64,000 nucleotides of DNA from an uncultured Acidobacteriota bacterium (GTDB lineage: Bacteria; Acidobacteriota; Thermoanaerobaculia; Gp7-AA8; CAVUJZ01), in NCBI GenBank assembly GCA_963741905.1, contig CAVUJZ010000002.1:8599-72598 (forward strand), in the 5' to 3' direction. Shown one piece after another: positions 19,350 through 63,717 of the stretch. The notes under the pieces were generated by a model that saw only the letters and a list, made by a program, of their open reading frames with translations, was not told the DNA's origin and searched no databases. A program made the position numbers and the translations under genes. Position 1 is the stretch's first letter. Each line of letters begins with the position of its first letter.

Positions 19350-22300
19350 TCACGAGCCGCAGGCGCCGAGCGGGCCGCGACCTGACTGACCCTGATGCAT
19401 CCGGACGAGGATTTCGAGCAGATCGTCCACGTCGTACGGCTTCATCAGGAACTCGGTGGTCCCGGAGCCGAGCAACTCCACGATCGAGGCCCGATCTCCG
19501 TGCCCGGTGGAGAAGATCACCGGAAGATCAGGCCGGGTTTTCCGGATTCTGCGGCAGACCTCCACCCCGTCGATATCCGGCAGGCCGACATCCAGGACCA
19601 CCGCTTGAGGATCGAATTCGGCCAGAGCCACCATGGCAGCCTCACCGTGGTCGACCAGGCAGACGGTGATGCCCTCACTGGAGAGAATTTCCCGCAGCCC
19701 CTCGGCCACCGAAAAGTCGTCCTCCACGATCAGCACCCGTTCCGGAAGTCCGGATCCGGAGACCTGCTCCTCATCGGGCACCCTCTCTAAGGCCGCCTGG
19801 GGAATCGGGAGAAACAGATGAAACGTCGTGCCGCTCCCCTCGATACTCTCCGCGAAAACCTCACCGTGATGCTGATCGATGATCTGATGAGCCACGGCCA
19901 GCCCCAGCCCCGTACCCTTGCGCTTGGTGGTGAAGAGCGGCTCGAAAATGTTCTTCAGCACTTCCGGCGGCATCCCGTTTCCGTTGTCCCGGAATGAAAG
20001 ATGAACTTTGTACTGTGGATTGGCCACCACTCCGTACGAGAAGACCCCCTCCGGGGAACAGCGCTTCGCCTGGACCTCGATCCGGCCCCCTTTGACCATC
20101 GCGTCCCGGGCATTCACCGCGAAGTTGATGATCACCTGATGAAGCTGGTCCGGATCTCCCCAGATGGTCAGGCCCGGCTCCCCATAGATCTCCACGGCGA
20201 TGCTGCCCCCGAGCAGAGAGGGAAGCTCGGCCGCGAACGATTCCAACCACTCGTCGACCGCGATCGATTGCAGATCGGGCTCGGCCGGCCGGGAGAAGCG
20301 GAGAATCTCCTGAGTGATCCGGCTTCCCCGCTGGACCGCACTGGAGATATAGGAAAGAGGCCGCTCGAGTTTCGGATCGCCGGCGGTATAGCGGCTCAGA
20401 AGCTCCGTGAATGGCTGGATTCCCATCAGCACATTGTTGAACTCATGAGCGATGGTCGCGGCCACGCGGCCGAGGCTGTTCAGCCGGTTCGCCTTTTCCA
20501 GTTGCTGCTCGATCAGGCAGCTGCTGGGAGATGTCGCTGAACGTGACCACTCCACCGATCACCTCGCCATCCAGCACGAGAGGCGAACAGGAATACTCCA
20601 CCGGAAAGGAAGTTCCTCGGCCGGTGTGGAACTCTTCGTCACGGACTCTCGAGGGCGTCCCGTTGACCAGCGCCCGGTGGATTGCACACTCCTGCCAGGG
20701 ATAGGGCGATCCGTCCGGACGGCGGGAGTGCACCAGCTCGTGCATCCGGACTCCGGCGAGCTCGTCCGGGGTGTAGCCGAGCATCTCCGCGCCGGCACGG
20801 TTGACCAGGGTGCAACGGCCCTCGAGATCAATCGCACAGAACCCCTCCATGGTGGAGTCGAGCATCAGGCTCAGCTCGGAGGCGAGGCGAAGCCGTTCCG
20901 ATTCGGACTCCCTCCACTCGGTGATGTCGATGATCGTCTTCTGAAGTACCGCCGAGCCAGGCTCGTCGAGCAGGGCGATGTTCTCGAGCACGCGGATTTC
21001 CCGGCCGTCGGCGCGACGGAGCCGCATCTCCATGTTGACTGCCGAACCCTCCCGCCGCAGTTTGCCGATCAACTGGCTCCGGTCGGAGGGATTGACGTAG
21101 AACTCGGCCGCATTGTGGCGCATCAACTCCTCGCGGCTGGAGAATCCGAACATCTGTACGCACGCTTCGTTGCAATCGATCACGCCTCCATCTTCCGAGG
21201 TGAGATAGACCGCCGCGAGATTGCGTTCGAAAAGACTTCGATACCGCGCCTCCGATTCCGCCAGCCGCTCCTCGGCCAGCTTTCTCTGAGAAATGTCGAG
21301 ATGGGAAACGACCGCGCCTCCCGATTCGGACGACAGAGGCTTGACGCTCAGCAGGAACCACCGCTTCTGGTCTGGGGAATGGCACGGATAGGTCATCCAG
21401 AAGGATTCGGTGCGCCCTTCCAGGACCTGTTCGATCCCCTCGAGCGCGCGCCGCGCGTCATCGTCGTCTCGGGCCGCGGTGCGGGTGACCGCGAGGTAGT
21501 CGGCACCCGACCCCACTCGATCCGGATCCTGGCCGTTCGCCTCGGCAAAGCGGATCCACGATTCATTGACCGAGACGATCCGGCCGTTCCGTTCGAGAAC
21601 GGCGACATGCGCTGCAAGCGACGCGAGAACCGCCCGGTTGAACTGGAGGCTTTCGCGAAGCGCCTGGTCCGCCTGCTTTCTCTCGGTGATGTCCTGAATC
21701 GCTGACGAGAGGTAGACGATCCGTCCCTGGCTGTTCCGGACCGGCGAGATCGTGACCTCGGTCCAGACCTCGGTTCCATCCTTCCGAATGTAACGCTTCT
21801 CCAGGGTGTGAGTGCCATCAGCTGCGGCTTCCACTCGCTCCAGCATTTCCAGGCTTGGGGCGACATCTTCCGGGTGGGTGAACTCTTCGAAAGACCGCGC
21901 GATCAACTCTTCCGCCTTGAATCCGAGAAGCTCACAGAATTTCGGGTTGACCCGCAGGATGCGGCCATCCGCGGTGACGTGGACGATGCCGACCACCGAC
22001 TGCTCGAATGCGCTCCGGAATCTCTGCTCACTCTCCCGCAGCGCCTCTTCGGCGAAGCGCTTCTCCCGGCGCACCTGCGCTTCCTTGACCTCCCGTTCAA
22101 TCGCCGGCCCCAGGCGACGCAGATCGCCCTTCATGATGTAGTCGCGCGCACCTCGCCGCATCACCTCCACGGCCAGAGCCTCGCCGATCGTGCCCGACAC
22201 CACGATGAGGGGGAGATCCGGATCGAAATCGCTGACAATCTGAACAGCTTCCTCTGCACTGAAGCCCGGAAGTGAGTAATCGCTGATCACAACATCCCAG

Positions 22301-29009: not shown

Positions 29010-29711
29010 TCAGTCCGGATTGGTCGCCCAGACGCTCAAATCGGTAATGAATCCGCGGTCGTCCATCTCCAGCATCGAGACCACCGCATGAGCAATCTCC
29101 TGCGGACGCAGCTTTCGCTCGCTCGGGGGTTGTTCCCGCCCTGCGCCCGAAAAGAACTCCGTCAGCACCTCACTCGGATTCACCTGCATCACCCGGATGT
29201 CGTGCTTCCGCAATTCCGCTCTCCAGCACTCGGTCAGTCCGGTCAGCGCAAATTTGCTGGCGACGTACGCGGATCCGCCGGCGAAGCCGCGATGCGCCGC
29301 GGTCGACCCGATGTTGACGATGTTGCCCCCGCCACGCGAGACGAAATGCCGCGCCGACTCCCGCGCCATCATCGCAGCCCCGAGAACATTGGTCGCCAGA
29401 ATCGACTGAAAGTCTTCCATATCGAGATCCTTGAGCGGAGAAAAGCGACCGAACCCGGCGTTGTTGATCAGCACGTCATAATCGCCGAACGCCTCGATCA
29501 CCCCTGCGACCATTCTCTTCGCGTCGGCTTCCACCGACACATCTCCCGGAATGGGATGCGCACCGATGGTCTCCGCGGCCCTCTTCAGTCGCGCTTCGTC
29601 CCGCGCGGAGATCGCCACCTCTGCGCCACGATCCTTCAGCGCTTTCGCAATGCCCAGACCGATGCCCGAGCTCCCGCCGGTCACCAGTGCCTTCGCACCT
29701 TCCAGTTTCAT
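29010..29711 (-). CDS. Short-chain dehydrogenase/reductase (SDR)
   Basis: It reads MKLEGAKALVTGGSSGIGLGIA...NNAG...YVASKFAL, showing the TGxxxGxG, NNAG and YxxxK motifs. The 233-aa protein starts at ATG 29711. The upstream part of ORF 29010..30497 is R/P-rich junk. Confidence 0.85.
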   Translation of the reverse strand: MKLEGAKALVTGGSSGIGLGIAKALKDRGAEVAISARDEARLKRAAETIGAHPIPGDVSVEADAKRMVAGVIEAFGDYDVLINNAGFGRFSPLKDLDMEDFQSILATNVLGAAMMARESARHFVSRGGGNIVNIGSTAAHRGFAGGSAYVASKFALTGLTECWRAELRKHDIRVMQVNPSEVLTEFFSGAGREQPPSERKLRPQEIAHAVVSMLEMDDRGFITDLSVWATNPD

Positions 29712-29752
29712 CCAGACTCCTTTCCGATCGAATCGACAATATACTCTTCGAC

Positions 29753-30364
29753 ATGCGCGAGCGTCCCGTCCTCGAGACCAGTCGGCTGGTCCTGCGACCG
29801 TTTTCGGAGCTCGATGCATCACCCGTGCGCGAGCTGGCTGGCGACCCCGACGTCGCCCGCATGACCCTCTCCATTCCTCACCCCTATCCGGAGGAGATGG
29901 CGCGCCAGTGGATCGCGCTCCACGCCCCCCGATGGGAAGAGGGACGGGAGCTGGTTCTTGCGATCGTGTCCCGGGAACAGGCGAGCGTCGTGGGTGCCGG
30001 GGGCCTCCTGCTCGAGCCAGCGCACCATCACGCGGAGCTGGGCTACTGGATCGGCAGACCTTTCTGGGGCCGGGGCTACGCGACTGAAGCCTCCCGGGCT
30101 CTGCTGGGCTTCGGGTTCGAGTCCCTTGAACTGGTCCGGATTTACGGTCGTCATTTCGCCTGCAACCCGGCTTCCGGCTCGGTGCTCCGCAAGCTCGGGA
30201 TGTCCATCGAGGGCACCTGGCGACGACATCTCCGGCGTGACGAGATCTTCCACGACGTCTGCTGCTACGGGTTGCTGCGGGAAGAGTGGGCGGGGATGGA
30301 CCACCCGCAGCGCTCCGTTTCCTCGGCCGGGTCGGTTCAGCAGGGTCGTGAATCAGCACCGTGA
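29753..30364 (+). CDS. GNAT-family N-acetyltransferase (RimJ/RimL-like)
   Basis: It reads LETSRLVLRPFSELDA...ELGYWIGRPFWGRGYATEA...RIYGRHFACNPASGSVLRKLGM. The last ~20 codons (from 30303) are supplied by a copy of the 77-bp repeat. Confidence 0.8.
   Translation: MRERPVLETSRLVLRPFSELDASPVRELAGDPDVARMTLSIPHPYPEEMARQWIALHAPRWEEGRELVLAIVSREQASVVGAGGLLLEPAHHHAELGYWIGRPFWGRGYATEASRALLGFGFESLELVRIYGRHFACNPASGSVLRKLGMSIEGTWRRHLRRDEIFHDVCCYGLLREEWAGMDHPQRSVSSAGSVQQGRESAP
30303..30347 (+). repeat. Truncated direct copy (first 45 nt) of the 77-bp repeat unit
   Basis: It matches array unit 2 (30573-) with 2 mismatches and overlaps the 3' end of the GNAT ORF. Confidence 0.8.
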
Positions 30365-30436
30365 GGCAACGTGGCCGAACGTTTGACGTTCGGGTCGGCT
30401 TGAACCGTCGCGAACGATCGCCGAGGAGACTCGGAG
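30365..30436 (-). repeat. Inverted, diverged copy of the 77-bp repeat unit
   Basis: The reverse complement, ctccgagtctcctcggcg...ggttcaagccgacccgaacgtcaaacgttcggccacgttgc, aligns to unit ctccgtctcctcggccgggttggttcaccagggtccccacccggacgtacaacgtccggccactcgc. The hairpin is retained as ccgaacgt-ttg-acgttcgg (30375-30393), with changes on both arms. Confidence 0.6.
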
Positions 30437-30495
30437 TGAGCGTCGAATCACTGCCCTCGCTCCGGGACTCAACCACCTGCACGTCTCGCGGCTCC

Positions 30496-31342
30496 AACCG
30501 CAGCGCTCCGTCTCCTCAGCCGGGTTGGTTCACCAGGGTCCCCACCCGGACGTACAACGTCCGGCCACTCGCAACCGCAACGCTCCGTTTCCTCGGCCGG
30601 GTCGGTTCAGCAGGGTCCCCACCCGGACGTACAACGTCCGGCCACTCGCAACCGCAGCGCTCTGTCTCCTCAGCCGGGTTGGGTCACCAGGGTCCCCACC
30701 CGGACGTACAACGTCCGGCCACTCGCAACCGCAGCGCTCCGTCTCCTCGGCCGGGTTGGTTCACCAGGGTCCCCACCCGGACGTACAACGTCCGGCCACT
30801 CGCAACCGCAGCGCTCCGTCTCCTCGGCCGGGTTGGTTCACCAGGGTCCCCGCCCGGACGTACAACGTCCGGCCACTCGCAACCGCAGCGCTCCGTCTCC
30901 TCGGCCGGGTTGGTTCACCAGGGTCCCCACCCGGACGTACAACGTCCGGCCACTCGCAACCGCAGCGCTCTGTCTCCTCGGCCGGGTCGGTTCACCAGGG
31001 TCCCCACCCGGACGTACAACGTCCGGCCACTCGCAACCGCAACGCTCCGTCTCCTCAGCCGGGTTGGGTCACCAGGGTCCCCACCCGGACGTACAACGTC
31101 CCGCCACTCGCAACCGCAGCGCTCTGTCTCCTCGGCCGGGTTGGTTCACCAGGGTCCCCATCCGGACGTACAACGTCCGGCCACTCGCAACCGCAGCGCT
31201 CTGTCTCCTCAGCCGGGTTGGGTCACCAGGGTCCCCACCCGGACGTACAACGTCCGGCCACTCGCAACCGCAGCGCTCCGTCTCCTCGGCCGGGTTGGTT
31301 CACCAGGGTCCCCGCCCGGACCTACAACGTCCGGCCACATGC
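30496..31342 (+). repeat. Tandem array of 11 copies of an exactly 77-bp unit, each carrying a perfect 8-bp-stem hairpin
   Basis: Units start at 30496, 30573, 30650, 30727, 30804, 30881, 30958, 31035, 31112, 31189 and 31266, with no length variation. The unit is aaccgcagcgctccgtctcctcggccgggttggttcaccagggtccccacccggacgtacaacgtccggccactcgc. It contains the inverted repeat ccggacgt-aca-acgtccgg. Variation is limited to about nine SNP positions, mostly in the 5' half. Confidence 0.95.
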
Positions 31343-31448
31343 GCGGGTCGGGTGGATGAGAATTGGCCCCGGTCCGGTTGTAGAAGCCGTGGGGATGCTG
31401 GAAGAACCTTCCTGCGTCGTCGATCGTCACGATCACCGGAGGGGTCAC

Positions 31449-32147
31449 GTGAATCAGAAAATCCGTCAGTGGGGAAAATCGCTTTGGCAGGAGTGGCTGC
31501 TTCCGGCGATCATCATCATCGCGATCATCGCGCCGGTCCGCTCCGCCATCGCGGACTGGAATGACGTCCCCACCGGGTCGATGAAACCGACGATCCTCGA
31601 AGGAGACCGTGTTTTCGTCAACAAGCTCGCCTACGACCTGAAGGTTCCATTCACCACGATGCACATCGCCACCTGGGACAATCCGCAGCGGGGTGACGTC
31701 ATCGTCTTCTTTTCGCCGGCAGACGGCAAACGGCTGGTCAAGCGGGTCGTCGGTCTCCCCGGTGACCACCTCAGCCTCCATGACAATGTCCTGCTGGTGA
31801 ACGGAGTCGCCGCCGAATACGATCCCCTCGATGAAAACGTGGTGAAGCAGATCGACGCGGCGGAACGGCGGCAATCGATCTTTGCCGAAGAGAAGCTCGG
31901 ATCGGTGGAGCATGCGGTCATGGGCAATCCGGCCAATCAGACCATCCGGACCTTTCCCACCATCAGCCTCAAGCCCGACCAGTACTTCGTGATGGGCGAC
32001 AACCGGGACAACAGCTTCGACAGCCGCTACTTCGGTCCGGTGGACCGCCACCTGATCGTCGGAAAGGCCGTCGGGGTGGCGTTCTCCCTCGACCACTCCC
32101 GTTACTTTCTTCCCCGCAGCGGCCGCTTCCTTCTCGGCCTGTACTGA
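31449..32147 (+). CDS. lepB: Signal peptidase I
   Basis: GGAGGGG lies 5 nt upstream of GTG 31449. There is an N-terminal TM segment, then the catalytic Ser box VPTGSMKPTI, RGDVIVF, LVKRVVGLPGD and FVMGDNRDNSFDSRYFG. An alternative ATG lies at 31395. Confidence 0.85.
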   Translation: MNQKIRQWGKSLWQEWLLPAIIIIAIIAPVRSAIADWNDVPTGSMKPTILEGDRVFVNKLAYDLKVPFTTMHIATWDNPQRGDVIVFFSPADGKRLVKRVVGLPGDHLSLHDNVLLVNGVAAEYDPLDENVVKQIDAAERRQSIFAEEKLGSVEHAVMGNPANQTIRTFPTISLKPDQYFVMGDNRDNSFDSRYFGPVDRHLIVGKAVGVAFSLDHSRYFLPRSGRFLLGLY

Positions 32148-34320: not shown

Positions 34321-35457
34321 ATGGAGGTCGTCACGGGTACGGAATCGAATCAGAATCAGCCACAGCAGAGCCTCTCCGATCGAATCCCGGTCGCCGTTCT
34401 CGGTGCGACCGGATCGGTGGGCCAGCGCTTCGTCCAGCTGCTCGAGCATCACCCGTGGTTCCGCCTCCATGAAGTGGTCGCTTCCGATCGGAGCGCGGGC
34501 CGCTCCTTCGGTGATGCGGCGGAATGGCGGCAACCGACGCTCCTTCCGGAGGAGGCCGCGGCGCTCGAGGTCAAGCCGCTCGGCCAGGAGCTGGAATCCA
34601 CCCTGCTGTTCTCCGCACTCGACTCCTCGGTTGCCGGGGAGGCCGAGGACCTCTACGCGAACCGGGGCTGTGTGGTGGTCTCGAACTCGAAGAACCACCG
34701 GATGGATCCCGACGTTCCCCTACTCATTCCGGAGATCAATCCCGCGCATCTGGCCGCCATCGAGCACCAGCAGACACGGCGCGGCGGGAAGGGCTATATC
34801 GTCACCAATCCGAACTGCTCCACCATCGGACTGGCCATGGCCATTGCTCCCATTGAATCTCAGCACGGTATCGACCGGCTGCAGGTCACCACGATGCAGG
34901 CGATCTCCGGAGCAGGCTATTCGGGCGTCCCCTCCTATTCGATTCTGGACAACGTCGTCCCGCTGATCTCCGGAGAGGAGTCGAAGATCGAATCGGAGCC
35001 GAACCGGATTCTCGGACGATGGACCGGCGAGCGATTCGAGGAGAACAGCATCCGGATCTCGGCCCAGGCAAACCGCGTTCCGGTGATCGATGGCCATCTG
35101 ATGTGTATCTCCTTTTCCTATCGGAATGGGGAGGACCTCAAGCGGCACTTTCCGGTCGAGACCCTGATCGAGGATGCACGTCACGCCCTCCGTTCATGGG
35201 CAGGTGAGCCTCAGCGGCTCGCGCTTCCCTCCGCACCGTCCCATCCGATTCATCTTCTCGACGAAGAGGACCGGCCCCAGCCACGGCTGGATCGGGACCG
35301 CGACCGGGGAATGTCGGTCTCGGTCGGACGAATCCGGCCCTGTCCCGTGCTCGACGTGCGGATGGTCGCCCTGGTCCACAATACGGTTCGCGGCGCCGCG
35401 GGAGCGGCCCTGCTCAATGCCGAGCTGCTGAAGTCAAAAGGTCTGTTGAATCGATGA
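34321..35457 (+). CDS. asd: Aspartate-semialdehyde dehydrogenase
   Basis: It reads VAVLGATGSVGQRFVQLLEHHPWF...NPNCSTIGLAMAIAP...NTVRGAAGAALLNAELL. Confidence 0.9.
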   Translation: MEVVTGTESNQNQPQQSLSDRIPVAVLGATGSVGQRFVQLLEHHPWFRLHEVVASDRSAGRSFGDAAEWRQPTLLPEEAAALEVKPLGQELESTLLFSALDSSVAGEAEDLYANRGCVVVSNSKNHRMDPDVPLLIPEINPAHLAAIEHQQTRRGGKGYIVTNPNCSTIGLAMAIAPIESQHGIDRLQVTTMQAISGAGYSGVPSYSILDNVVPLISGEESKIESEPNRILGRWTGERFEENSIRISAQANRVPVIDGHLMCISFSYRNGEDLKRHFPVETLIEDARHALRSWAGEPQRLALPSAPSHPIHLLDEEDRPQPRLDRDRDRGMSVSVGRIRPCPVLDVRMVALVHNTVRGAAGAALLNAELLKSKGLLNR

Positions 35458-36821
35458 TTGTCATCAAGTTCGGAGGAACCTCGGTCGGTTCGACCTCCGC
35501 TCTGCGCCAGGCGATCGAGATCGTTGCGGCGCGGCACGAGCAGAGGCCGGTGGTGGTCGTCTCGGCTCTGTCCGGCATCACCAACCAGCTCGAGGCCGCC
35601 TCGGCCGCGGCCGCCACCGGCGACGCCGAGGCGATGCGGCTCCAGGTCCGGGAAATCGAAAGCCGCCACCGGGAGATCGCCTTCGAGCTCGTCCAGCAGA
35701 AATCGGACTATCTCGACGCGTTCAACCGGCAGCTCTCCCGCCAGATCAATCAGATCACCGCCATCCTGGAAGGGATCGCTCTGGTCGGAGAAGTCACGCC
35801 CCGCGCGCACGACAAGATCTCGGCGATCGGTGAGAAGCTCTCCTCGGTGCTCTTCGCCTACACCATGCGACTGAAGATGCTCGCCGGGGTCCATGTGGAC
35901 TCCGAGGAAGTGATCGTGACCGACGAGCGGTTCGGGCGAGCGACTCCGCTGATGGACCAGACCCGGGAAGCCGCCCATCGGGTCCTGCTTCCCGAGCTCG
36001 ACCGAGGCCACATCCCGGTGATGGGAGGGTTCGTCGGACGCTCGCAGAAGGGTGCGACCACGACCCTGGGACGCGGGGGCTCGGACTACAGCGCGGCCAT
36101 CGTCGGTGCGGTTCTCGAGGCGGACGAGATTCAGATCTGGACGGACGTCGACGGCATGATGACCTCGGATCCAAGAGTGATTCCCGCCGCCCGGGTCATC
36201 GATCAGATCTCCTACGTGGAAGCTGCAGAGCTGGCCTTCTTCGGAGCCAAGGTGCTCCACCCGAACACGATCGCGCCCGCGGTGAAGCGGGCGATTCCGA
36301 TCCGGGTGCTCAACACCCACAACCCTGCAGCGCCCGGTACGCGAATCACCCGCGAGGGGGATTCCTCCAGCCGACGCGCTCGCGCGATCGCGGTCAAGCG
36401 CGGAGTCACGGCGATCCATCTGACCTCGGATCGGATGCTCGGTGCGCACGGATTCCTGGCCGCCATCTTCGAGGTCTTCGACCGCTGGGAAACATCGGTC
36501 GATCTGGTCACCACCTCGGAGGTTTCCGTCTCGCTCACGATCGACCGGGACGATCATCTCGACGCACTGGTTCAGGAGCTCGACCAGGTGGCGGACGTGC
36601 GGATTGAGCGCGATCAGGCGATCATCGCCATCGTCGGCACCGACGTGCTGGGCGACAACGCGGTGGGTGTCTCACTGTTTCAGGCTCTTCGGGAAATCCC
36701 GATCTCGATGATCGATCTCGGCAGCTCGGGATTGAACCTCAGCCTCGTCGTGCGGGGGGCGGACGCCGACCGGGCGCTCCGATCGATTCACGCCGCCATC
36801 TTCGAGCAGGTCCCGGCGTAG
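35454..36821 (+). CDS. lysC: Aspartate kinase
   Basis: It reads MIVIKFGGTSVGS...LGRGGSDYSAA...TDVDGMMTSDPR, followed by C-terminal ACT-like repeats. An ATGA overlaps the asd stop. Confidence 0.9.
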   Translation: MIVIKFGGTSVGSTSALRQAIEIVAARHEQRPVVVVSALSGITNQLEAASAAAATGDAEAMRLQVREIESRHREIAFELVQQKSDYLDAFNRQLSRQINQITAILEGIALVGEVTPRAHDKISAIGEKLSSVLFAYTMRLKMLAGVHVDSEEVIVTDERFGRATPLMDQTREAAHRVLLPELDRGHIPVMGGFVGRSQKGATTTLGRGGSDYSAAIVGAVLEADEIQIWTDVDGMMTSDPRVIPAARVIDQISYVEAAELAFFGAKVLHPNTIAPAVKRAIPIRVLNTHNPAAPGTRITREGDSSSRRARAIAVKRGVTAIHLTSDRMLGAHGFLAAIFEVFDRWETSVDLVTTSEVSVSLTIDRDDHLDALVQELDQVADVRIERDQAIIAIVGTDVLGDNAVGVSLFQALREIPISMIDLGSSGLNLSLVVRGADADRALRSIHAAIFEQVPA

Positions 36822-36881
36822 CCACGCATCTGCCAGATCCACGGCCGCGCCGGGGCAACGCGTTCCTCAGGAGGAGATTGG

Positions 36882-37556
36882 ATGAAACTCGCACTCAGCG
36901 GGCAGGGGAAGATGGGACAGGCCGTCGAGAGAGTGGCGGCACAGCGGGGACATCAGATCGCCGTCACCTTCAGCAGCAGCCAGCCACCTCGGGAGCAGGA
37001 GCTCGAGGGAGTCGAGGTGCTCATCGATTTCTCCCACGCCTCGGCCATCGATCAGGTTTTTCGCGCAGCCTGGGCCGCCGGAGTTCCCGTCGTGACCGGA
37101 ACTACCGGATGGAACGACCGGCTCGCGGAGATCCGGGAAAAGAGTGCAGCCGCCGGAATCGCGGTCGTGCACGCGGCCAACTTTTCCCCGGGAGCGAACC
37201 TTCTCTTCGCGCTCGCACGCCGGGCGGCGGAGCTCGCGATGAAGTTTGAATACGCCGCCGGAATCGAGGAGCGTCATCATGCCCAGAAGAAGGATGCTCC
37301 CAGCGGCACCGCCATCCGGATCGCCAGCGAGGTCTCCCGAGGCAGTGAAGGAAGACTCGAGGCTCCGATCGTCAGCTCGCGCGTGGGCAGCGAGTTCGGC
37401 CTCCATACGCTGTTTTTCGATTCTCCAGACGATCTGATAGAACTGAGCCACCGTGCGCGCGGCCGCGACGGCTTCGCCCGGGGCGCGGTCATTGCAGCCG
37501 AGCTGATCGCGGATCGGACCGGCTTTTTCAGTTTCGAAGAGCTCATCGGGCTCTGA
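36882..37556 (+). CDS. dapB: 4-hydroxy-tetrahydrodipicolinate reductase
   Basis: It reads MKLALSGQGKMGQAV...VTGTTGW...AANFSPGANL...ERHHAQKKDAPSGTA. Confidence 0.85.
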   Translation: MKLALSGQGKMGQAVERVAAQRGHQIAVTFSSSQPPREQELEGVEVLIDFSHASAIDQVFRAAWAAGVPVVTGTTGWNDRLAEIREKSAAAGIAVVHAANFSPGANLLFALARRAAELAMKFEYAAGIEERHHAQKKDAPSGTAIRIASEVSRGSEGRLEAPIVSSRVGSEFGLHTLFFDSPDDLIELSHRARGRDGFARGAVIAAELIADRTGFFSFEELIGL

Positions 37557-37574
37557 TCCGCGAGAGGAGGTCCC

Positions 37575-38498
37575 ATGGCAGACAAGACTGGTTCAGACCG
37601 GTTCCGGGGCGTCGGAGTCGCCCTGATCACTCCGTTCAAGGACGACGGTTCCCTGGATGAGGCGACGTTCGAAAAGTTCGTCGACTGGCAGATCGAACAG
37701 GGAACGGATTTTCTGGTTCCCTGTGGTACGACCGGCGAGAATCCCGCACTCACCTTCGATGAGCATCTGCGGGTGATCGAACTGACGGTGAAGCGGGCCA
37801 ATGGCCGGACTCCGGTACTTGCCGGTGCCGGGAGCAACTCCACGCCCAAAGCGATCGACTTCGCCCTCGGGGCGATCGAGCTCGGGGCAGACGGAATCCT
37901 GACCATCACGCCGTACTACAACAAGCCCACTCCGGATGGATTGCTCCGGCATTTCGGGGCCCAGGGCGATGCAGTGGACGGGGTTTCCTCCGGCTTTCCG
38001 ATGATCGTGTACAACGTCCCTGGACGAACCGGCTGCAACATCACTCCCGACACCCTTCAGCGAATCATCCGGACCGTGCCGAACGTGATCGGAGTGAAGG
38101 AGGCCTCCGCGAATTACGATCAGATGGCAACGATTCTCCGGGAGCGCCCGCCCGGATTCCTGATGCTCAGCGGCGATGACTCCTGGACGCTCCCACTGAT
38201 CGCTCTCGGAGCCGACGGAGTGATCTCGGTCGCAGCCAACGAGGTTCCGGCCCTGATGAAACAGATGGTCTCCGCAGCGCTGCACAACGATTTTCCGGCA
38301 GCTCGGGCCATTCACCGACAAATTCTCCCGCTGATGACCGGAAACTTCATGGAATCCAATCCCGGACCCCCCAAAGCGGCAATGAAGATGATGGGCATTC
38401 TGCCGAACGATCTGCTGCGGTCCCCATTGGCACCGCTGACCGACGCCAGCCGCTCGCGCTTGCGCACCATCCTCGAGGAGTGCGGATTGCTCGCCTGA
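37575..38498 (+). CDS. dapA: 4-hydroxy-tetrahydrodipicolinate synthase
   Basis: It reads GVGVALITPFKDDGSLDE...LVPCGTTGENPALT...TPYYNKPT...YNVPGRTG. Confidence 0.9.
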   Translation: MADKTGSDRFRGVGVALITPFKDDGSLDEATFEKFVDWQIEQGTDFLVPCGTTGENPALTFDEHLRVIELTVKRANGRTPVLAGAGSNSTPKAIDFALGAIELGADGILTITPYYNKPTPDGLLRHFGAQGDAVDGVSSGFPMIVYNVPGRTGCNITPDTLQRIIRTVPNVIGVKEASANYDQMATILRERPPGFLMLSGDDSWTLPLIALGADGVISVAANEVPALMKQMVSAALHNDFPAARAIHRQILPLMTGNFMESNPGPPKAAMKMMGILPNDLLRSPLAPLTDASRSRLRTILEECGLLA

Positions 38499-38555
38499 CC
38501 GGGCCAGTCCCCGCTTTCCTCTGTTTGTTGTAGGGTTTGTCCAACAGGAGCCGTC

Positions 38556-39383
38556 ATGATGGAAACCATCGAATCTCGAATCGCCGGACTGGAAACCACC
38601 CATGACCGCATGGAAGCGGTGCGGATTCTCAATCTCTTTCTGGCTGAACTGGAGAAGGGAACGGTTCGATCCGCGGAGCGCGACGACATGGGCGTATGGC
38701 ACGCCAATGAATGGGTCAAGAAGGGCATCCTCCATGCCTTCCGCTTCGGGGTGCTGACCGACTTCGCCTCCGGATCGCTGTCGTTTGTGGACAAGGACAC
38801 CGTTCCCCCGCGACGCTTTCGCAAGGACGAGGGCATCCGCATCGTGCCCGGCGGAACCGCGGTCCGCAGGGGAGCTCATCTCGGTCAGGGAGTGGTGATC
38901 ATGCCTCCGGCATACGTCAATGTCGGGGCTTTCGTGGACGAGGAGACGATGATCGATTCCCATGCCCTCGTCGGATCCTGTGCTCAGATCGGAAAACGGG
39001 TTCACCTCAGCGCCGCAGCACAGATCGGTGGTGTGCTCGAGCCGATCGGAAATGTGCCGGTCGTGGTGGAGGACGAAGTGGTGGTCGGCGGCAATGCCGG
39101 GATCTACGAGGGCACCATCGTCCGCACCCGTGCGGTCATCGGGGCGGGCGTGGTGATCACCGCATCCACCCCGGTCTATGACGCCGTCCGGGATCAGGTC
39201 TACCGCGCCGAGAAGAACCGACCGCTGGAGATTCCGTACGGAGCGGTGGTGGTTCCCGGATCGCGCCCCCTGTCGAGTGATTTCGGCAGGAAACACGGCC
39301 TGCAGATCGCCAGCCCGGTGATCATCAAGTACCGCGACGACAAGACCGACAGCGCCACCGCACTCGAAGAAGCGCTTCGATGA
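38556..39383 (+). CDS. dapD: Tetrahydrodipicolinate N-succinyltransferase
   Basis: It aligns by eye along its length with E. coli DapD (…[11 protein letters not shown]…[13 protein letters not shown]…[48 protein letters not shown]…). Confidence 0.9.
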
Positions 39384-40537
39384 CCGACGAGCAGCGAACC
39401 CCTCCGGCCGCATCACGTTTCGATGGGGTGGACGTCTCGCTGATCCGGCAGATCAATGCGCTCGCCACCCCGCTGAGTCTCAATCTGGGACTGGGCGAGC
39501 CGAATCTGCGTCCCGACGATCGGCTCATGGAGATGGTCGAGCGTGCCGCGCGCGAAACGCCGTGGAGCTACTCGCCGAACGCCGGATTCCTCTCTCTCCG
39601 GCAGGCCATCTCGGATTGGCATGGCGGTCTGGCCGATCCTCCCGATGGAATCTGCGTCACCGCGGGGACCCAGGAGGGGCTCCACGCGGTGATCACCGCC
39701 TTCGTCAATCCGGGCGATGAAGTGCTGGTGCCTGATCCAGGCTTTCTCTCCTATCCTGCCCTGGTCCGTCTCGCCGGCGGGGAGCCGGTGGGCTACCCGC
39801 TGGAGACCGGCTCATGGACGGTGGATCCAGACGAGATCGAGTCGCGGCTGAGCTCCCGGACCCGCGCGATCGTGATCAACTCACCATCCAATCCGACCGG
39901 TGGCGTCCTTTCGCGCCACGTCCTCGAGCAGATCGCGGACCTCGCCGACCGCCATGGTTGTCTCCTCATCAGCGACGAGGTGTATCGGGAAATCCACTAC
40001 GGAGAGCGGCCCCCGACCCTGCTCGGGCTCGGCAGGAACTCCATCGTTCTCACCGGACTCTCCAAGAGCCATGGCCTGACCGGATTGCGGATCGGGTGGA
40101 TCCTCGGGCCCGGAACATTGATGCGGAGCATCATCAAGGCGCATCAGTACATCACCACCTGTGCATCCGTTGCATCACAAAGGCTGGCCGAACAGGTACT
40201 CTCCGATCGACCGTGGAACGAAGGCTGGCTGGCCGGCGTCCGCGCACAGTTCCGCGGCCAGCGGGAAACGGCTCTGTTCGGGATCGAGCACCGTCTTCAC
40301 ACCAGGATCTCCCCACCGGAAGGGGCGTTTTACGCATTCGTTCCAATCCCCGCCTGCCGCTCGCTGGAGCTTGCTCGCGAGCTCGCCACCGATGCCGGGG
40401 TGATCGTCATCCCCGGGGTGGCATTCGGCGAGCAGGGAGAAGGCTTCGTCCGGATCTCCTACGCGGCACCGCACGAGATCATCGGGAGCGGAATCGAGCG
40501 GATCGGCAGGTATCTCGATGGGCGGGCGCTTCGGTGA
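39380..40537 (+). CDS. Class I/II pyridoxal-phosphate aminotransferase (DapC-like by context)
   Basis: The fold-type I pattern includes the ...[13 protein letters not shown]... lysine motif. An ATGA overlaps dapD. Confidence 0.75.
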
Positions 40538-41479: not shown

Positions 41480-42415
41480 ATGCCCGCCAAACGCGTCATC
41501 CCCGACGACCGGGACCACATCGGTGTCCGCCTCGCCGACCGGCTGGTCAATCTCACCAACCTCCAGAAACCCTTCTTCAAACAGCTCGCCCTGACCAAGG
41601 GCGACCTCCTCCAGTACTACCTCGAGATCTCGCACTTCCTTCTCCCCCACCTGATCGACCGCCCCATGGTGATGAAGCGTTATCCCAACGGTGCCGAGGG
41701 AAAGCACTTCTTCATGAAACGCGCACCGTCGCCCCGACCGAAATGGATCCAGATCTGCGACATCCGGCATCGAAATGCCGGCATGGTCAACTACCCCGTC
41801 GTTCAGGACCTGCCAACCCTGATGTGGATCATCAATCTCGGCTGCATCGACCTGAACCCCTGGTATGGCCGCTGCGACGACGTCGATCGGCCCGACTACC
41901 TCCACTTCGACCTCGATCCCGTCCCCGGCGCCGACTTCGGCCGCGTCCGGGAGGTCGCCCTGCTGGTCCGTGACACCCTCGAATCCCTCGGGATGCGCTC
42001 CTGGGCAAAAACCACAGGCTCACGCGGCATTCACGTCTACGTCCCCATCCGTCGCGACCTGGTCCAGAAGGAAGTCTGGACGATCGCCAAAGCGATTGCG
42101 AAGGAGCTCGAGGCACGTCATCCGAAGCTGGTGACCGCGGAGTACCGCAAGGCCAAACGTCCCCGAGGCCGGATCAACGTGGACTACAACCAGAATGCCT
42201 GGGGCCGCACCCTCGCCAGCGTCTACTCGGTTCGCCCCACCCCCGAAGCCACCGTCTCGATGCCGGTGAACTGGGAGGAGGTCGAAGCCGGAGTCGCCAT
42301 CACCGACTTCAACATTCTCAACACACCAGGTCTTCTCCGCGAGCGGGGCGACCTCTGGAAACCTCTCCTCGGAAAGCGCCGCTTCGATCTCCGCAAGATC
42401 GTCGGCTCACTCTGA
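41480..42415 (+). CDS. LigD-type NHEJ polymerase/primase domain protein (stand-alone)
   Basis: It reads LTNLQKPFF...LTKGDLLQYY...RPMVMKRYPNG...DLDP...KTTGSRGIHVYVP...VDYNQNAWGRTLASVYSVRP. Confidence 0.85.
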   Translation: MPAKRVIPDDRDHIGVRLADRLVNLTNLQKPFFKQLALTKGDLLQYYLEISHFLLPHLIDRPMVMKRYPNGAEGKHFFMKRAPSPRPKWIQICDIRHRNAGMVNYPVVQDLPTLMWIINLGCIDLNPWYGRCDDVDRPDYLHFDLDPVPGADFGRVREVALLVRDTLESLGMRSWAKTTGSRGIHVYVPIRRDLVQKEVWTIAKAIAKELEARHPKLVTAEYRKAKRPRGRINVDYNQNAWGRTLASVYSVRPTPEATVSMPVNWEEVEAGVAITDFNILNTPGLLRERGDLWKPLLGKRRFDLRKIVGSL

Positions 42416-42445
42416 GGAGGCTCCGGAGACGGAGCGGGCGATCGG

Positions 42446-43579
42446 GTGGCTCTCCCGGGTGCGCGATTTGCTCGGTTCTTTGCCATGACACGCACTGAAT
42501 CACGCTCCCCGGCCTCTCGCGCTCCTCAGATCGAGGAAGGGGGCTTCCCCAGTCTCGATCTCCCGCTGCCACTCCCCTATCCGCCGATGGAAGCGAAGCG
42601 AGCCGACCGGATCCCCGGGAGTAAAGGGTGGCTTTTCGAGCCGAAGTGGGACGGGTTCCGCGCGGTGATCTTCCGGTCCGGCGACGAGGTGGTGATCCAG
42701 TCGAAGGCAGGGCAACCGCTCGGTCGCTATTTCCCTGAGCTCGTCGATGCGGCCCGGCGGCTCAAGCCCGACCCGTTCGTCATCGACGGCGAGATCGTCG
42801 TGCCGGTCGAGGGGCGACTTTCATTCGACGACCTCCTGCTGAGGATCCACCCCGCCGCATCCAGGGTGGAGAAGCTCTCCCGCGAGATTCCAGCCGAAGT
42901 CTTCGTGTTCGATCTGCTTCACGAGCGCGGATCGGGGACGGTGCTCGCGGAACGACCTCTTCGCGAGCGGCGCAAGCGCCTCGAGCGCTTCTTCCGTTCG
43001 ATTCCCGACGACACCTCCTTCAAGCTCTCTCCCGCCACCGAAGACCCGCGGATCGCCCGGGACTGGTTCGACAACTACGGCAGCCAGGGGCTGGACGGAA
43101 TCATCGCCAAGCGGATCGACGAGCCCTATCACTCCGGCGATCGCGAGGGCATGGTGAAGATCAAGAACCTGCGCACCGCCGATTGCGTGGTGGGAGGTTA
43201 TCGAACATCCTCGCGCGGTGAGGGCGTGGGATCGCTTCTCCTCGGTCTGTTCGATTCCGAAGGCCGGCTCCATTTCGTCGGCCATACGTCATCCTTCTCG
43301 TCCACCGAGCGTCTCGAGCTGGAGTCGCTCCTGGAGCCTCTGCGGGGAGACAACCCCTTCTCCGTTCGGGTTCCGGGAGGTCCGAGCCGCTGGGCGTCCG
43401 AGCGCAGCTCGGAATGGAATCCTCTCCGCGCGGAACGGGTCTGCGAAGTTCGCTACGATCATTTCAGCCAGGGGCGGTTCCGCCATGCGACGAAATTTCT
43501 CCGATGGCGACCGGAGAAGAATCCGAAGCAGTGCACGATGAAGCAGGTTCAGAAGAGCGTTCCGATGCCGGAGCGGTGA
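42446..43579 (+). CDS. ATP-dependent DNA ligase (LigD ligase-domain type)
   Basis: It has adenylation motif I, EPKWDGFRA. Other motifs are FDLL, DGIIAKR and KIKN, with an OB-fold tail. The start is uncertain, at 42446 or ATG 42485. Confidence 0.85.
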   Translation: MALPGARFARFFAMTRTESRSPASRAPQIEEGGFPSLDLPLPLPYPPMEAKRADRIPGSKGWLFEPKWDGFRAVIFRSGDEVVIQSKAGQPLGRYFPELVDAARRLKPDPFVIDGEIVVPVEGRLSFDDLLLRIHPAASRVEKLSREIPAEVFVFDLLHERGSGTVLAERPLRERRKRLERFFRSIPDDTSFKLSPATEDPRIARDWFDNYGSQGLDGIIAKRIDEPYHSGDREGMVKIKNLRTADCVVGGYRTSSRGEGVGSLLLGLFDSEGRLHFVGHTSSFSSTERLELESLLEPLRGDNPFSVRVPGGPSRWASERSSEWNPLRAERVCEVRYDHFSQGRFRHATKFLRWRPEKNPKQCTMKQVQKSVPMPER

Positions 43580-47773: not shown

Positions 47774-48913
47774 TCAGACCGGAGGAGAGATCGCCGAGTA
47801 CATCACTTCGCGAATCTCACTGAATACATCCTCGGCCGGAACCCCCTTCTCCCGATAGGTCGAGGCCCGCTTGGTGAGCTGCTCGATGGTCTTCTCGTCG
47901 AGCGCGCGGAAATCGATGGTCCGGTCATTGAGCTCACAGAACGCCACCAGAGCGGCGACCGCCAACCTTCGGTTCGCCGAATGGAATGGCAGGTTCTGGA
48001 CCAGAGCGAAAAAGAACGCCGCCGCCTTTTCGAAGAAACGGGGATAAGCATCACGACCGAAAATCGTCGCCTGGGGTCGCTCGACTGCATTCCGCAGCGC
48101 GAAATCGGAATCGACTTCTCCGGGCTGGGCCTGGGTTCCACCGAATTCCGCGGCGACCGCCTGATGCAACTCGATCAGCTCGTCGATGGTGAGATAGCGA
48201 ACCCGCCGCTGATCAGTCCTTGAGCCGCCGGAGAGCTGTAGGATACTTCTGGACAGCCCGCTTGAAGGCGGAGGCGACCCGGGGATTGCTGAATTGGAGC
48301 CGCCCTTTCCGGCTTTCTTTCGACTCCGCTTTGCTGCCGGACTTTTTGCTGCCGGCTTTGCTGCCGGACTTTTTACCGCTGGTTTTCTTGCCGGCGCCTT
48401 CTTTGCGCCTTTTGGAGGCGACGCCTTCTGGACTGCCGGCTTTTTTACCGCCGACTTTTTTACCGCCGACTTTTTTGCCGCTGGCTTTTTTGCTGGCGAT
48501 GCCTTTTTTGCTGATGCTTTTTTTGCTGATGGTTTTTTTGCCGGCGTCTTCCTTGCGGCCTTTCCGGACGACGCCTTTGGGGCCGCCGGCCTTTTTAGTG
48601 CGCCGGCTTTTTTGCCGCTGGCTTTTTTGCTGGCGACGACTTTTTTGCTGACACCTTTTTTGCCGGTGACTTTTTTGCTGACGCCTTTCTTGCTGACGCC
48701 TTGGTTGCGGCTTTCCCGGGCTGCGACTTTTTTGCCGCTGCTTTTTTTGCCGCTGGCTTTGCCGCCGGAGACTTTTTTGCTGCTGCTTTTTTTACTGCTC
48801 TTTTTGCTGGGCTTTTTCCGGCTGCCGGCTTTGCTGCTGGGGCTTGCTTTTTTCTCTCGTTTCTGGCCATCGTTCATCTCGAGCCTCGCTGCAATCGTAG
48901 AGATCCAACTCAC
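47774..48913 (-). CDS. Histone-H1-like Lys/Ala/Ser/Pro-rich N-terminal region (~230 aa) fused to a Doc/Fic-fold domain with a degenerate active-site motif
   Basis: The C-terminal 140 aa align by eye with phage P1 Doc (YLTIDELIELHQAV...ERPQATIFGRDAYPRFFEKAAAFFFALVQNLPFHSANRRLAVAAL). The N-terminus is KKxSxKK/AKKPAAKK low complexity. An alternative start is ATG 48877. Confidence 0.7.
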   Translation of the reverse strand: MSWISTIAARLEMNDGQKREKKASPSSKAGSRKKPSKKSSKKSSSKKVSGGKASGKKSSGKKVAARESRNQGVSKKGVSKKVTGKKGVSKKVVASKKASGKKAGALKRPAAPKASSGKAARKTPAKKPSAKKASAKKASPAKKPAAKKSAVKKSAVKKPAVQKASPPKGAKKAPARKPAVKSPAAKPAAKSPAAKRSRKKAGKGGSNSAIPGSPPPSSGLSRSILQLSGGSRTDQRRVRYLTIDELIELHQAVAAEFGGTQAQPGEVDSDFALRNAVERPQATIFGRDAYPRFFEKAAAFFFALVQNLPFHSANRRLAVAALVAFCELNDRTIDFRALDEKTIEQLTKRASTYREKGVPAEDVFSEIREVMYSAISPPV

Positions 48914-49579: not shown

Positions 49580-50437
49580 CTAGTGTGACCGACCAGGCTT
49601 CGCACTTTCAAGCCCGCATCCCGATGGCTGACACCGCGGACACCACCAGGTGAGCCGCGCATCCTCTCCCAGACGAGCCGCCTCGATCGGGGTGCCGCAC
49701 CGCCGGCAGGCCTGCCCGCCCCGACCGTAAACCCACAACCGGCCCCGGGGATCAGCCGTCCCCGTGGTTCGCCGATGATCCCTCGGCGCAAGCGGATCCC
49801 GCACCTCGCGCACATTCTTCCGCAGAAGAGCCGCGGCGAGATCGACCAGCGCTTCCAGTCTCTCCACGGAGATCTCCGCCACCGGGGAGAGCGGATTGAT
49901 CCCGGCCAGAAACAGAGCCTCCGACTTGAATACGTTCCCGACACCAGCCATGACCGACTGGCGGAGCAGTGTCACGCCGATCTGTTCATCACCGTGCTTC
50001 TCGATCCGTCGAACCACCTCGGCCGAATCAAACCGTTCGCCAAGGGGATCGGGGCCGAGCCGCTCGACCGCCTCGATGGCCGCACCTCCCGCGTGGAACT
50101 CCGCTACCGGAATGGCGAAGCCCACCGCGACGTACTCCTCGTTTCCGATCACGATACGCATGTCGTCGCGGCGTCGCCGCCAGCGCTCGTCCGGACGGTA
50201 GATGTGCCAGCTCCCATTCATTCGCAGGTGCGTTCGAAGCACGAGAGGCCCTTCGAGCTCCATCAGAAGGTGCTTTCCGGATGCGGTCACCCGCAGCACT
50301 TCCCGCCCGGCGATCGGACTCTGATCGTCGACCCGGGCGAGCTGAGCCAGGACGGTTTCGAACCGGGTCACTCTTCGCCCGGCGAGGGCGCGGTTCAGAG
50401 CACGGGCGCTGCGGAAAATCGTGTCTCCCTCAGGCAT
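49580..50437 (-). CDS. nei: Fpg/Nei-family DNA glycosylase (endonuclease VIII-like)
   Basis: It has N-terminal MPEGDTI (catalytic Pro2/Glu3), H2TH ...AGVGNVFKSEALF..., and a C-terminal zinc finger CRRCGTPI...CPRCQ. The start at 50437 overlaps the lhr stop. Confidence 0.85.
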   Translation of the reverse strand: MPEGDTIFRSARALNRALAGRRVTRFETVLAQLARVDDQSPIAGREVLRVTASGKHLLMELEGPLVLRTHLRMNGSWHIYRPDERWRRRRDDMRIVIGNEEYVAVGFAIPVAEFHAGGAAIEAVERLGPDPLGERFDSAEVVRRIEKHGDEQIGVTLLRQSVMAGVGNVFKSEALFLAGINPLSPVAEISVERLEALVDLAAALLRKNVREVRDPLAPRDHRRTTGTADPRGRLWVYGRGGQACRRCGTPIEAARLGEDARLTWWCPRCQPSGCGLESAKPGRSH

Positions 50438-54947: not shown

Positions 54948-55092
54948 CGACTGAGGAGTCACCTTCCGCCGGAGATCGACGACCGCGGGAGTGTCCTGAT
55001 CCGGGTGATTTTCGTCCCGAGGCTGGACATCCCGCACTTCGATTGCAAGAATAGTGGGCGTCGGAAGATACTGTGAGTGGGAAACAACGCCG

Positions 55093-63614: not shown

Positions 63615-63717
63615 TCATCATTCCTCCGGCGGGCAACCCGCTGCAAGATCTGTTCAATCGTGAGAGGCACACTGCCTGACAGGCGAAATCTATCAGAGAT
63701 TGCCGGGAACGAAGAAC

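Follow-up and report, generated by a model that had tools for sequence, protein, structure and literature searches.

We analyse here a 64-kb stretch of contig CAVUJZ010000002.1 from an uncultured Acidobacteriota bacterium, called the window in what follows, and in it one locus: an array of eleven head-to-tail copies of a 77-bp unit, each with a hairpin, between an acetyltransferase gene of the GNAT family and lepB, the gene of signal peptidase I. The array is most likely a bacterial repeat of a known kind and not a new system, while the repeat family itself is new and rare. More precisely, it is probably a cluster of a lineage-restricted, tandemly amplified family of semi-selfish intergenic elements, of the type of repetitive extragenic palindromes (REPs), of the hairpin-forming REP doublets known as REPINs, and of bacterial interspersed mosaic elements (BIMEs). 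An initial annotation, made from the nucleotides of the window, had proposed three possibilities: an array of protein-binding sites, a leader or sponge RNA, and an amplified REP-like selfish element. The third is the best supported, because modules of the repeat occur in both orientations, at this locus and, in differing arrangements, in three other contigs from uncultured bacteria; because the hairpin carries a GTGG head; and because its stem covaries.

The array and its unit

The array is the following feature:

30495..31341, + strand: array of the 77-bp unit, 11 units head-to-tail, 847 bp, between the RimJ-like GNAT gene and lepB.

That the eleven units are exactly 77 bp long and free of insertions and deletions had been claimed from the outset, and two computations agree with it. 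Tandem Repeats Finder reports 11.0 direct copies with period 77 at positions 30495-31338, with 94% matches, 0% indels and a score of 1534, and repeat finding yields eleven 77-nt spacings in the array.

Each unit is composed of a 46-nt arm, followed by CCCAC, by the hairpin CCGGACGT-ACA-ACGTCCGG, and by CCACTCG. We denote by A the 46-nt non-palindromic part of the unit, and by B the hairpin module. When a B module is read on the minus strand, it becomes GTGG-CCGGACGT-TGT-ACGTCCGG, that is, GTGG followed by an 8-bp stem with a TGT loop. In each of the 11 units, GTGG stands immediately before the stem on the minus strand; an inverted copy described below has it on the plus strand, and it can be deduced in a related array, P0128, of another contig.

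The palindrome, a GC-rich stem-loop of 19 nt with 8 paired positions and a 3-nt loop, is perfect in 9 of the 11 units, and the stem-loop of the inverted copy, which has the same dimensions, is perfect as well. Units 8 and 11 have one stem mismatch each, and are the only ones to do so, as the initial annotation had stated. The predicted free energy of the hairpin RNA is -13 to -14 kcal/mol, versus -7.7 and -9.7 kcal/mol for the mismatched units 8 and 11. A search of the 64 kb for the hairpin half of the unit, CCCGGACGTACAACGTCCGGCCACTCG, finds 11 copies, all of them inside the array (8 exact copies, one mismatch in each of units 8 and 9, and three mismatches in unit 11), and shuffled sequences yield 0 occurrences.

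Variation within the unit is lowest in the 19-bp palindrome. Whether substitutions cluster in the 5' half, as was first suggested, depends on what is counted: there are 20 differences from the consensus in unit positions 9-51 versus 4 in the other 34 nt, a contrast that holds when cells are compared (Fisher test, p=0.006), but the variable sites are distributed as 9 out of 43 in positions 9-51 and 4 out of 34 in the rest (p=0.37). The six polymorphisms common to at least two units all fall within unit positions 9-50, and two pairs of units are identical: unit 3 with unit 10, and unit 4 with unit 6. A second stem, ccgggt...acccgg, had been proposed next to the hairpin. It is indeed present, but it draws on bases of the main hairpin, so that the two stems are in competition, and its polymorphic partners, unit positions 32 and 50, are never altered together.

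Copies outside the array

The initial annotation was right about the array, but the locus extends further upstream, where a partial copy and an inverted copy had been missed. Four features are needed to describe this head region:

29753..30364, + strand: gene of a RimJ/RimL-like GNAT acetyltransferase (Pfam Acetyltransf_3, E=7e-34).
30302..30347, + strand: partial forward copy, unit positions 1-46 (the A arm), found by nhmmer (E=1e-10), by repeat finding and by DNA search.
30368..30446, - strand: inverted, diverged copy of the unit, found by nhmmer (E=1.3e-3, unit positions 15-74), by pattern matches on the opposite strand and by alignment.
30447..30494, + strand: linker from the inverted copy to the array, belonging to a composite repeat that is conserved in a different contig as well (peptide TTCTSRGS...).

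The order along the locus is thus A (30302-30347), 20 nt, B'A' inverted (30368-30446), linker (30447-30494), (A-B) x 11 (30495-31341), 107 nt, and lepB.

On its plus strand, the inverted copy reads GTGG (30371-30374), then the hairpin CCGAACGT-TTG-ACGTTCGG (30375-30393), followed by the A arm in reverse complement. Its stem differs from that of the array units at position 4, where the pair is A:T instead of G:C: both sides of the stem have changed, and the GTGG head is retained in both kinds of copy. The window therefore holds two hairpin subtypes, in opposite orientations. Such a compensated change, seen between the array and the inverted copy and again in the related array P0002, indicates that the palindrome is maintained. 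A sub-threshold Rfam match to CRISPR-DR20 also falls on the inverted hairpin copy (30363-30398, - strand), with 20.8 bits versus a gathering score of 42 and an E-value of 0.23; we judge it to be noise.

The partial copy lies within the GNAT gene, whose final ~20 codons (DHPQRSVSSAGSVQQGRESAP) and stop codon are repeat-derived DNA. Homologues of this acetyltransferase, of ~180-190 amino acids, stop at an LREEW motif or no more than ~10 residues past it, so that the tail is without counterpart among them, and the last ~20 residues and the stop come from the repeat. Since the open reading frame (ORF) enters the repeat in all three frames, this conclusion does not depend on a possible frameshift in the gene.

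It is natural to conjecture that the element, if mobile, landed on the 3' end of the GNAT gene, or grew beside it, and came to supply this end. A forward A-B unit would then have been amplified to 11 in-phase copies, by replication slippage or by unequal recombination between direct copies, and gene conversion may have kept the copies similar. The partial copy is 96% identical to unit 2, and has in common with it the variants T18, C32 and G39; among the units, T18 and G39 belong to unit 2 alone, and C32 to units 2 and 7. To judge from these three positions, the variation is likely real, and the two copies may well have undergone gene conversion.

Related arrays in other contigs

Relatives were sought with the translated array as a probe. 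A word-indexed search returns P0001, which is the array itself called as an ORF, together with P0002 and P0003; when 1.84 billion representative proteins are searched exhaustively with HMMER, P0001, P0128, P0002 and P0003 are the only matches. The related arrays were mapped as peptides, without gaps, onto the window, and their structure was further derived from self-periodicity.

The three relatives differ in their arrangement. P0128 is a composite with a period of 76 amino acids, or 228 nt, repeated at least 6 times. Its period is colinear, without gaps, with positions 30358-30580 of the window, that is, with the inverted unit, the linker and the forward unit, at 58-61% amino acid identity in two frames; it is this colinearity that shows the linker to be part of a composite repeat. 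A forward hairpin stands ~25 nt upstream of each inverted one, yielding inverted dimers A-B...B'-A' that are reiterated in tandem. P0002 contains at least 6 forward units with a period of 28 amino acids, or 84 nt, and P0003 is a mosaic of both orientations. Inverted doublets are thus found in P0128, as A-B...B'-A' dimers with a 228-nt period, and in the window, where the inverted copy adjoins forward copies; the 11-unit array itself is all direct.

Copies of the repeat in these ORFs are read in differing frames, and two overlapping frames fix the underlying DNA. In P0128, the peptides VAERFTFGW and GRTFHVRVG together give GTGGCCGAACGTTTCACGTTCGG, and RPL and SGH give ACGTCCGGCCAC. In P0002, PNVQRSAT and PERTTFGH give CCGAACGTACAACGTTCGGCCAC, and for the forward units CCGAACGTACAACGTTCGG, with A:T at stem position 4. 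The family as a whole thus shows a GTGG head, a stem of 8 bp and covariation between G:C and A:T. Outside their repeats, P0128 and P0002 have tails that match nothing in the window, so the related arrays do not appear to be syntenic with this locus.

One isolated hairpin deserves mention here. In an Acidobacteria gp6 metagenome-assembled genome (MAG; L001, QHWF01000639.1), positions 2858-2879 hold an intergenic hairpin, GGCCGGACGT-TCG-ACGTCCGGG, just past a stop codon. Its stem is the same as that of the array hairpin, and it has no A arm; it may be due to chance, or it may be a distant singleton relative.

Comparison with known repeats

The resemblance to REP, REPIN and BIME repeats, such as BIME-2 and REP325 of E. 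coli and those of P. fluorescens SBW25, bears on several levels. A short GC-rich palindrome has an unpaired tetranucleotide at one foot, which here too may be of the GT(A/G)G type; two hairpin subtypes stand in opposite orientation; there are inverted dimers, and ordered tandem arrays that include flanking DNA (PMC3116915, PMC3733652). Arrays of ~12 hairpins between co-directional genes, and an occasional overlap with the end of an ORF, are also found on both sides of the comparison (PMC3733652, bioRxiv 10.64898/2026.03.23.713779). In SBW25, REPs of a single type form ordered, evenly spaced tandem arrays, including two arrays of 12 (PMC3116915), and about 10% of tagged REPs are located at ORF ends (PMC3733652). 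The head differs, being GTGG here and not GTAG. GTAG heads are known to degenerate to GTRG, and to GTGG in the REPs of Opitutus terrae, but the GTGG variant is documented in one family alone, O. terrae GTAG-20 (PMC3733652).

Other points weigh against this assignment. Classical REPs are present in more than 100 copies per genome, versus a single locus in this window: the survey of unit copies within the genome covers these 64 kb, and neither nhmmer nor pattern matches find further copies of the unit or of the hairpin elsewhere in them. Classical REPs measure 20-40 nt, and the conserved unit exceeds this with its 77 nt, of which 46 form a non-palindromic arm. It has one hairpin and is repeated purely head-to-tail, an arrangement reported as rare for tagged REPs (PMC3733652). 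Among the ~55 window proteins scanned with Pfam, there is no REP-associated tyrosine transposase (RAYT), no Y1 transposase and no other transposase. A simple scan finds neither promoter nor terminator consensus. The structures of P0128, P0002 and P0003 are deduced from called ORFs alone. Finally, the repeat family is very rare in public data: the pattern GGCCGRACGTTNNACGTYCGGG matches just seven unrelated single hairpins in 185,579 species-representative genomes, a pattern for the A arm has only four chance matches, inside coding regions, in JGI metagenome contigs, and two scans of viral contigs give no match.

The BOX elements of S. pneumoniae, of the form boxA-boxB(n)-boxC, offer another parallel: they are modular, mosaic intergenic elements in which one internal module is tandemly amplified; their predicted hairpins are stable, and no transposase is known for them. 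They differ from the present repeat in lineage and sequence, in being AT-rich, and in having defined terminal A and C modules.

Genes on both sides of the array

Three more features complete the description of the locus:

29010..29711, - strand: gene of a short-chain dehydrogenase (SDR; Pfam adh_short).
31342..31448, + strand: unique spacer of 107 nt upstream of lepB, with the ribosome-binding site GGAGGGG at 31438-31444.
31449..32147, + strand: lepB, signal peptidase I (Pfam Peptidase_S26, E=1e-43).

The GNAT and lepB genes had already been named as the two flanks, with the GTG start of lepB 107 nt past the array, and Pfam agrees on both. The start at 31449 is backed by homologues of 232 amino acids covering 100% of the protein, and by the GGAGGGG site that precedes it; these are also the grounds for rejecting an N-terminal extension of LepB through an in-frame ORF of 540 amino acids.

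In L012, the contig with the closest lepB relative, an adh_short gene (1943-2668, - strand) and lepB (2838-3536, + strand) lie side by side and diverge from a 169-bp spacer. The window thus has the GNAT gene and the array in addition, and the array is not a conserved leader of lepB. The 107-nt spacer aligns poorly with the spacers between SDR and lepB genes of relatives. Comparing positions 1943-3536 of L012 with 29010-32147 of the window, the GNAT gene itself may be an insertion between the SDR gene and lepB.

The identity of LepB to its nearest homologues is just 66-69%, which points to a poorly sampled lineage; the named matches are mostly MAGs of Acidobacteriota and Verrucomicrobiota. When 10 candidate sequences from the window were looked up in a clustered protein collection, 8 were present, each as a singleton cluster; the other two, which are alternative starts of lepB, are not in the collection.

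The window is otherwise an ordinary piece of chromosome: it holds a glycine-betaine ABC transporter, many two-component genes with PAS and GAF domains, the SDR, GNAT and lepB genes, a YfhO-like membrane protein, the series asd-lysC-dapB-dapA-dapD-aminotransferase, a LigD primase-polymerase and a ligase, an Lhr helicase, cell-wall genes, pgk and gap. As the initial annotation had remarked of the neighbourhood, no genes for Cas, ParA/ParB, Rep or transposase proteins are found among the window genes scanned with Pfam, and no RAYT, toxin or ToxN-like gene either.

Alternative explanations

The main rival, which we consider rather unlikely, is a private minisatellite, or variable number tandem repeat (VNTR). 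Local DNA at the 3' end of the GNAT gene would have been duplicated in tandem, without any mobile or REP biology, and with no function beyond a possible polymorphism in copy number. The single locus in 64 kb fits this explanation, as does the near identity of the partial copy in the GNAT tail to unit 2, and the exact phasing and the identical units (3 and 10, 4 and 6) suggest a recent local amplification. It leaves unexplained, however, the presence of both orientations, the periods of 84 and 228 nt, and the non-syntenic settings of the three other ORFs. Moreover, since GNAT homologues are without the tail, the repeat does not stem from ancestral GNAT coding sequence, and the compensated substitutions in the palindrome also speak against a private duplication.

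A precedent for a minisatellite is found in the mycobacterial interspersed repetitive units (MIRUs) of the M. tuberculosis complex. MIRUs carry short overlapping ORFs, with overlapping stops and starts, and are not known to have a strong palindrome; the unit described here is unrelated to them in sequence, has no stop and therefore no stop/start overlaps, and forms a perfect 8-bp hairpin. The likeness is one of layout: MIRU-VNTR loci are tandem arrays of 40-100-bp units in the spacer between co-directional genes, and some MIRUs, such as those between senX3 and regX3, have exactly 77 bp (PMC4213456). At senX3-regX3 the copy number is variable and may influence the expression of the downstream gene (PMC4213456).

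It is also conceivable, though unlikely, that the array is a selected cis-element of an undescribed repeat family. It would have been co-opted as a multi-hairpin insulator or attenuator, or as a platform for protein loading, uncoupling the essential gene lepB from the gene inserted upstream, and independent tandem amplifications with periods of 77, 84 and 228 nt would have been favoured in different genomes. In a related variant, the enzyme that moves the repeats would not be a RAYT.

It is quite unlikely, in our view, that the units serve as binding sites for a protein that binds DNA as a dimer, in which case the palindrome would be an operator and the 77-bp phasing would matter, either as a centromere like sopC or parC, or for the loading of a nucleoid protein or gyrase as in BIME-2. 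The perfection and low variability of the 19-bp palindrome are in its favour, and so is a strictly indel-free period in a contig that has indel errors elsewhere; REP and BIME clusters have themselves been proposed as sites for several proteins (PMC2817692). On the other hand, the phasing is not conserved, the related arrays having periods of 84 and 228 nt, and 77 bp amount to about 7.3 helical turns, so that successive sites would not lie on one face of the helix. The scanned genes include no ParA/ParB or Rep protein and no nearby regulator.

The likeness to the centromere of plasmid F, sopC, on which the initial annotation had drawn, lies in strictly phased units that are repeated directly in tandem and each contain a small inverted repeat (12 x 43 bp in sopC). 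The likeness ends there: partition genes were not found among the window genes scanned, the context is one of chromosomal housekeeping genes, and the related arrays have other periods and mixed orientation. A plasmid-type centromere is rejected on these grounds, with neither ParA/ParB-type nor replication genes in the scan, with SDR, GNAT, lepB, YfhO-like and lysine-biosynthesis genes as neighbours, and with a period that changes among relatives; the centromere proposal has gained nothing.

A dedicated functional RNA, be it a multi-hairpin leader of lepB, a sponge for small RNAs or proteins, or a processed repeat RNA of the ToxI kind, seems to us very unlikely. The array shares its strand with the two flanking genes, it would supply 11 stable hairpins of -13 kcal/mol each, and there is a precedent in the RNA of E. 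coli REP325, which appears as a ladder of hairpin-ended species (bioRxiv 10.64898/2026.03.23.713779). Against these stand the following results. Rfam 15 has no match at gathering score in the whole window, in agreement with the early statement that no described RNA family was recognised, and the lone match in E-value mode is the one to CRISPR-DR20 on the inverted copy. The fold of three units is no better than that of shuffled sequences on either strand (z=-0.94 and -0.96). A simple consensus scan finds no promoter or terminator within the unit, the closest lepB relatives have short and unrelated leaders, and what lies downstream is an ordinary lepB instead of a toxin gene of the ToxN/AbiQ type. 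The head region, 30290-30500, also folds no better than shuffles; its minimum free energy structure pairs 30317-30330 with the inverted arm. The leader or sponge of the initial annotation is thus supported neither by Rfam nor by folding, and survives in a weaker form, as a REP-type hairpin barrier in a 3' untranslated region (UTR).

The array resembles CRISPR and ToxI arrays in being direct and regular, and in its palindromic, invariant core of ~34 nt alternating with a more variable segment of ~43 nt. The 'spacers', however, are 85-100% identical, no cas gene was found in the scan, and the array itself has no CRISPR-DR match, which together rule out a CRISPR array, as had been concluded from the lack of unique spacers. 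A type III toxin-antitoxin system with a ToxI-like RNA is ruled out by the gene downstream, which encodes a signal peptidase I and not a toxin (Peptidase_S26, E=1e-43).

That the array, or its number of copies, is an assembly artefact is highly improbable. The contig comes from a MAG and is indeed prone to indels elsewhere, as the initial annotation had claimed. In the gap gene (~63570-63620, - strand), an apparent 1-nt frameshift splits the NAD-binding motif, with MVHVGIN in one frame and FGRIGRNVLRAAL in another, and a PAS-HisKA hybrid histidine kinase gene (~20440-20560, - strand) is split into two overlapping ORFs, again by an apparent 1-nt frameshift. Identical units are, in addition, hard to place in an assembly. 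However, errors of this type suggest an indel-prone assembly of the long-read type, and long reads can span 847 bp; the unit variants are structured, those of unit 2 (T18, C32 and G39) recurring 270 bp upstream in the partial copy; and comparable arrays are found in three other contigs.

A real coding gene, of the P0001 type with 307-332 amino acids and a repeat of 77 amino acids running through all three frames of the unit, is extremely improbable: the plus strand of the unit is open in all three frames (the minus strand has one stop per unit), and a public annotation did call P0001, but the G+C content of the three codon positions is flat across the array, at 0.67/0.70/0.69 versus about 0.68/0.46/0.77 in real genes, so that the array does not look coding; the sole Pfam match, to Ntox37, has 27.2 bits, just under the gathering cut-off of 27.8, and no individually significant stretch; its 'homologues' are all arrays themselves, translated in frames and orientations that shift; and by our own estimate a 77-nt unit of this G+C content has a stop-free strand by chance about once in five. 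The initial annotation had excluded a repeat protein on the ground that 77 is not a multiple of 3. This argument is not strictly right, since an ORF with a period of 77 amino acids is possible and was called, but its outcome, an array that does not look coding, is borne out by the flat codon positions, and the plus strand of the unit is indeed stop-free, as the annotation had remarked of the long ORFs. The case is a warning for annotation: stop-free tandem repeats are called as 'proteins', as happened with P0001, P0002, P0003 and P0128.

Possible function and significance

By analogy with known REP clusters, the array is probably neutral or mildly regulatory, and if it acts at all, it probably does so as a 3'-UTR hairpin barrier or attenuator like REP325 of E. 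coli. REP325, whose 12 hairpins occupy 577 bp, separates the co-directional genes yjdM and yjdN. It makes the mRNA upstream of it more stable and also attenuates read-through, in part through Rho (bioRxiv 10.64898/2026.03.23.713779). In the window, the stretch from the end of the GNAT gene to lepB measures ~1.08 kb, is rich in C (42% C, 27% G) and contains 11-12 hairpins. Read-through from the GNAT gene would thus produce ~1.08 kb of untranslated RNA with 11-12 stable hairpins, which should block 3' exonucleases and attenuate transcription before lepB, possibly via Rho. The expression of lepB would then depend on its own promoter, presumably held in the 107-nt spacer, where a simple scan finds no sigma-70 consensus.

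If the array is indeed a REP-like cluster, it represents a REP/REPIN-like family that is new and very rare, and whose lineage is uncultured and probably related to the Acidobacteriota. The family is then notable for its GTGG head, for two hairpin subtypes specific to orientation, and for an unusual expansion that is purely head-to-tail. It would show such elements reshaping the ends of genes, here the last 20 codons and the stop of the GNAT gene, and placing about 1 kb of DNA rich in hairpins as padding before an essential gene. It opens no new mechanism and settles no long-standing question.

Other observations in the window

A compact cluster for lysine and diaminopimelate synthesis lies at 34321-40537 (+ strand), with asd, lysC (AA_kinase and ACT domains), dapB, dapA, a dapD-like hexapeptide transferase gene and an aminotransferase gene. 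LigD is present as separate genes for the primase-polymerase and the ATP-dependent ligase, with an Lhr-type helicase of 1570 amino acids nearby (41480-43579, + strand, and 50430-55142, - strand).

Two other ORFs contain tandem repeats. A repeat of 255 bp, with 6.9 copies and 81% matches (1396-3151), lies inside an ORF of 822 amino acids (1627-4095, - strand) that has weak Pfam matches to PKD and Ig-like domains, and that probably encodes a surface protein of 85-residue Ig-like repeats. In the ORF at 47774-48913 (- strand), tandem repeats of 12-48 nt (48328-48805) encode a Lys/Ala-rich, histone H1-like region that resembles HC2 (E=1.9e-9, below the Pfam gathering cut-off); the same ORF carries a Fic/DOC domain, an unusual combination.

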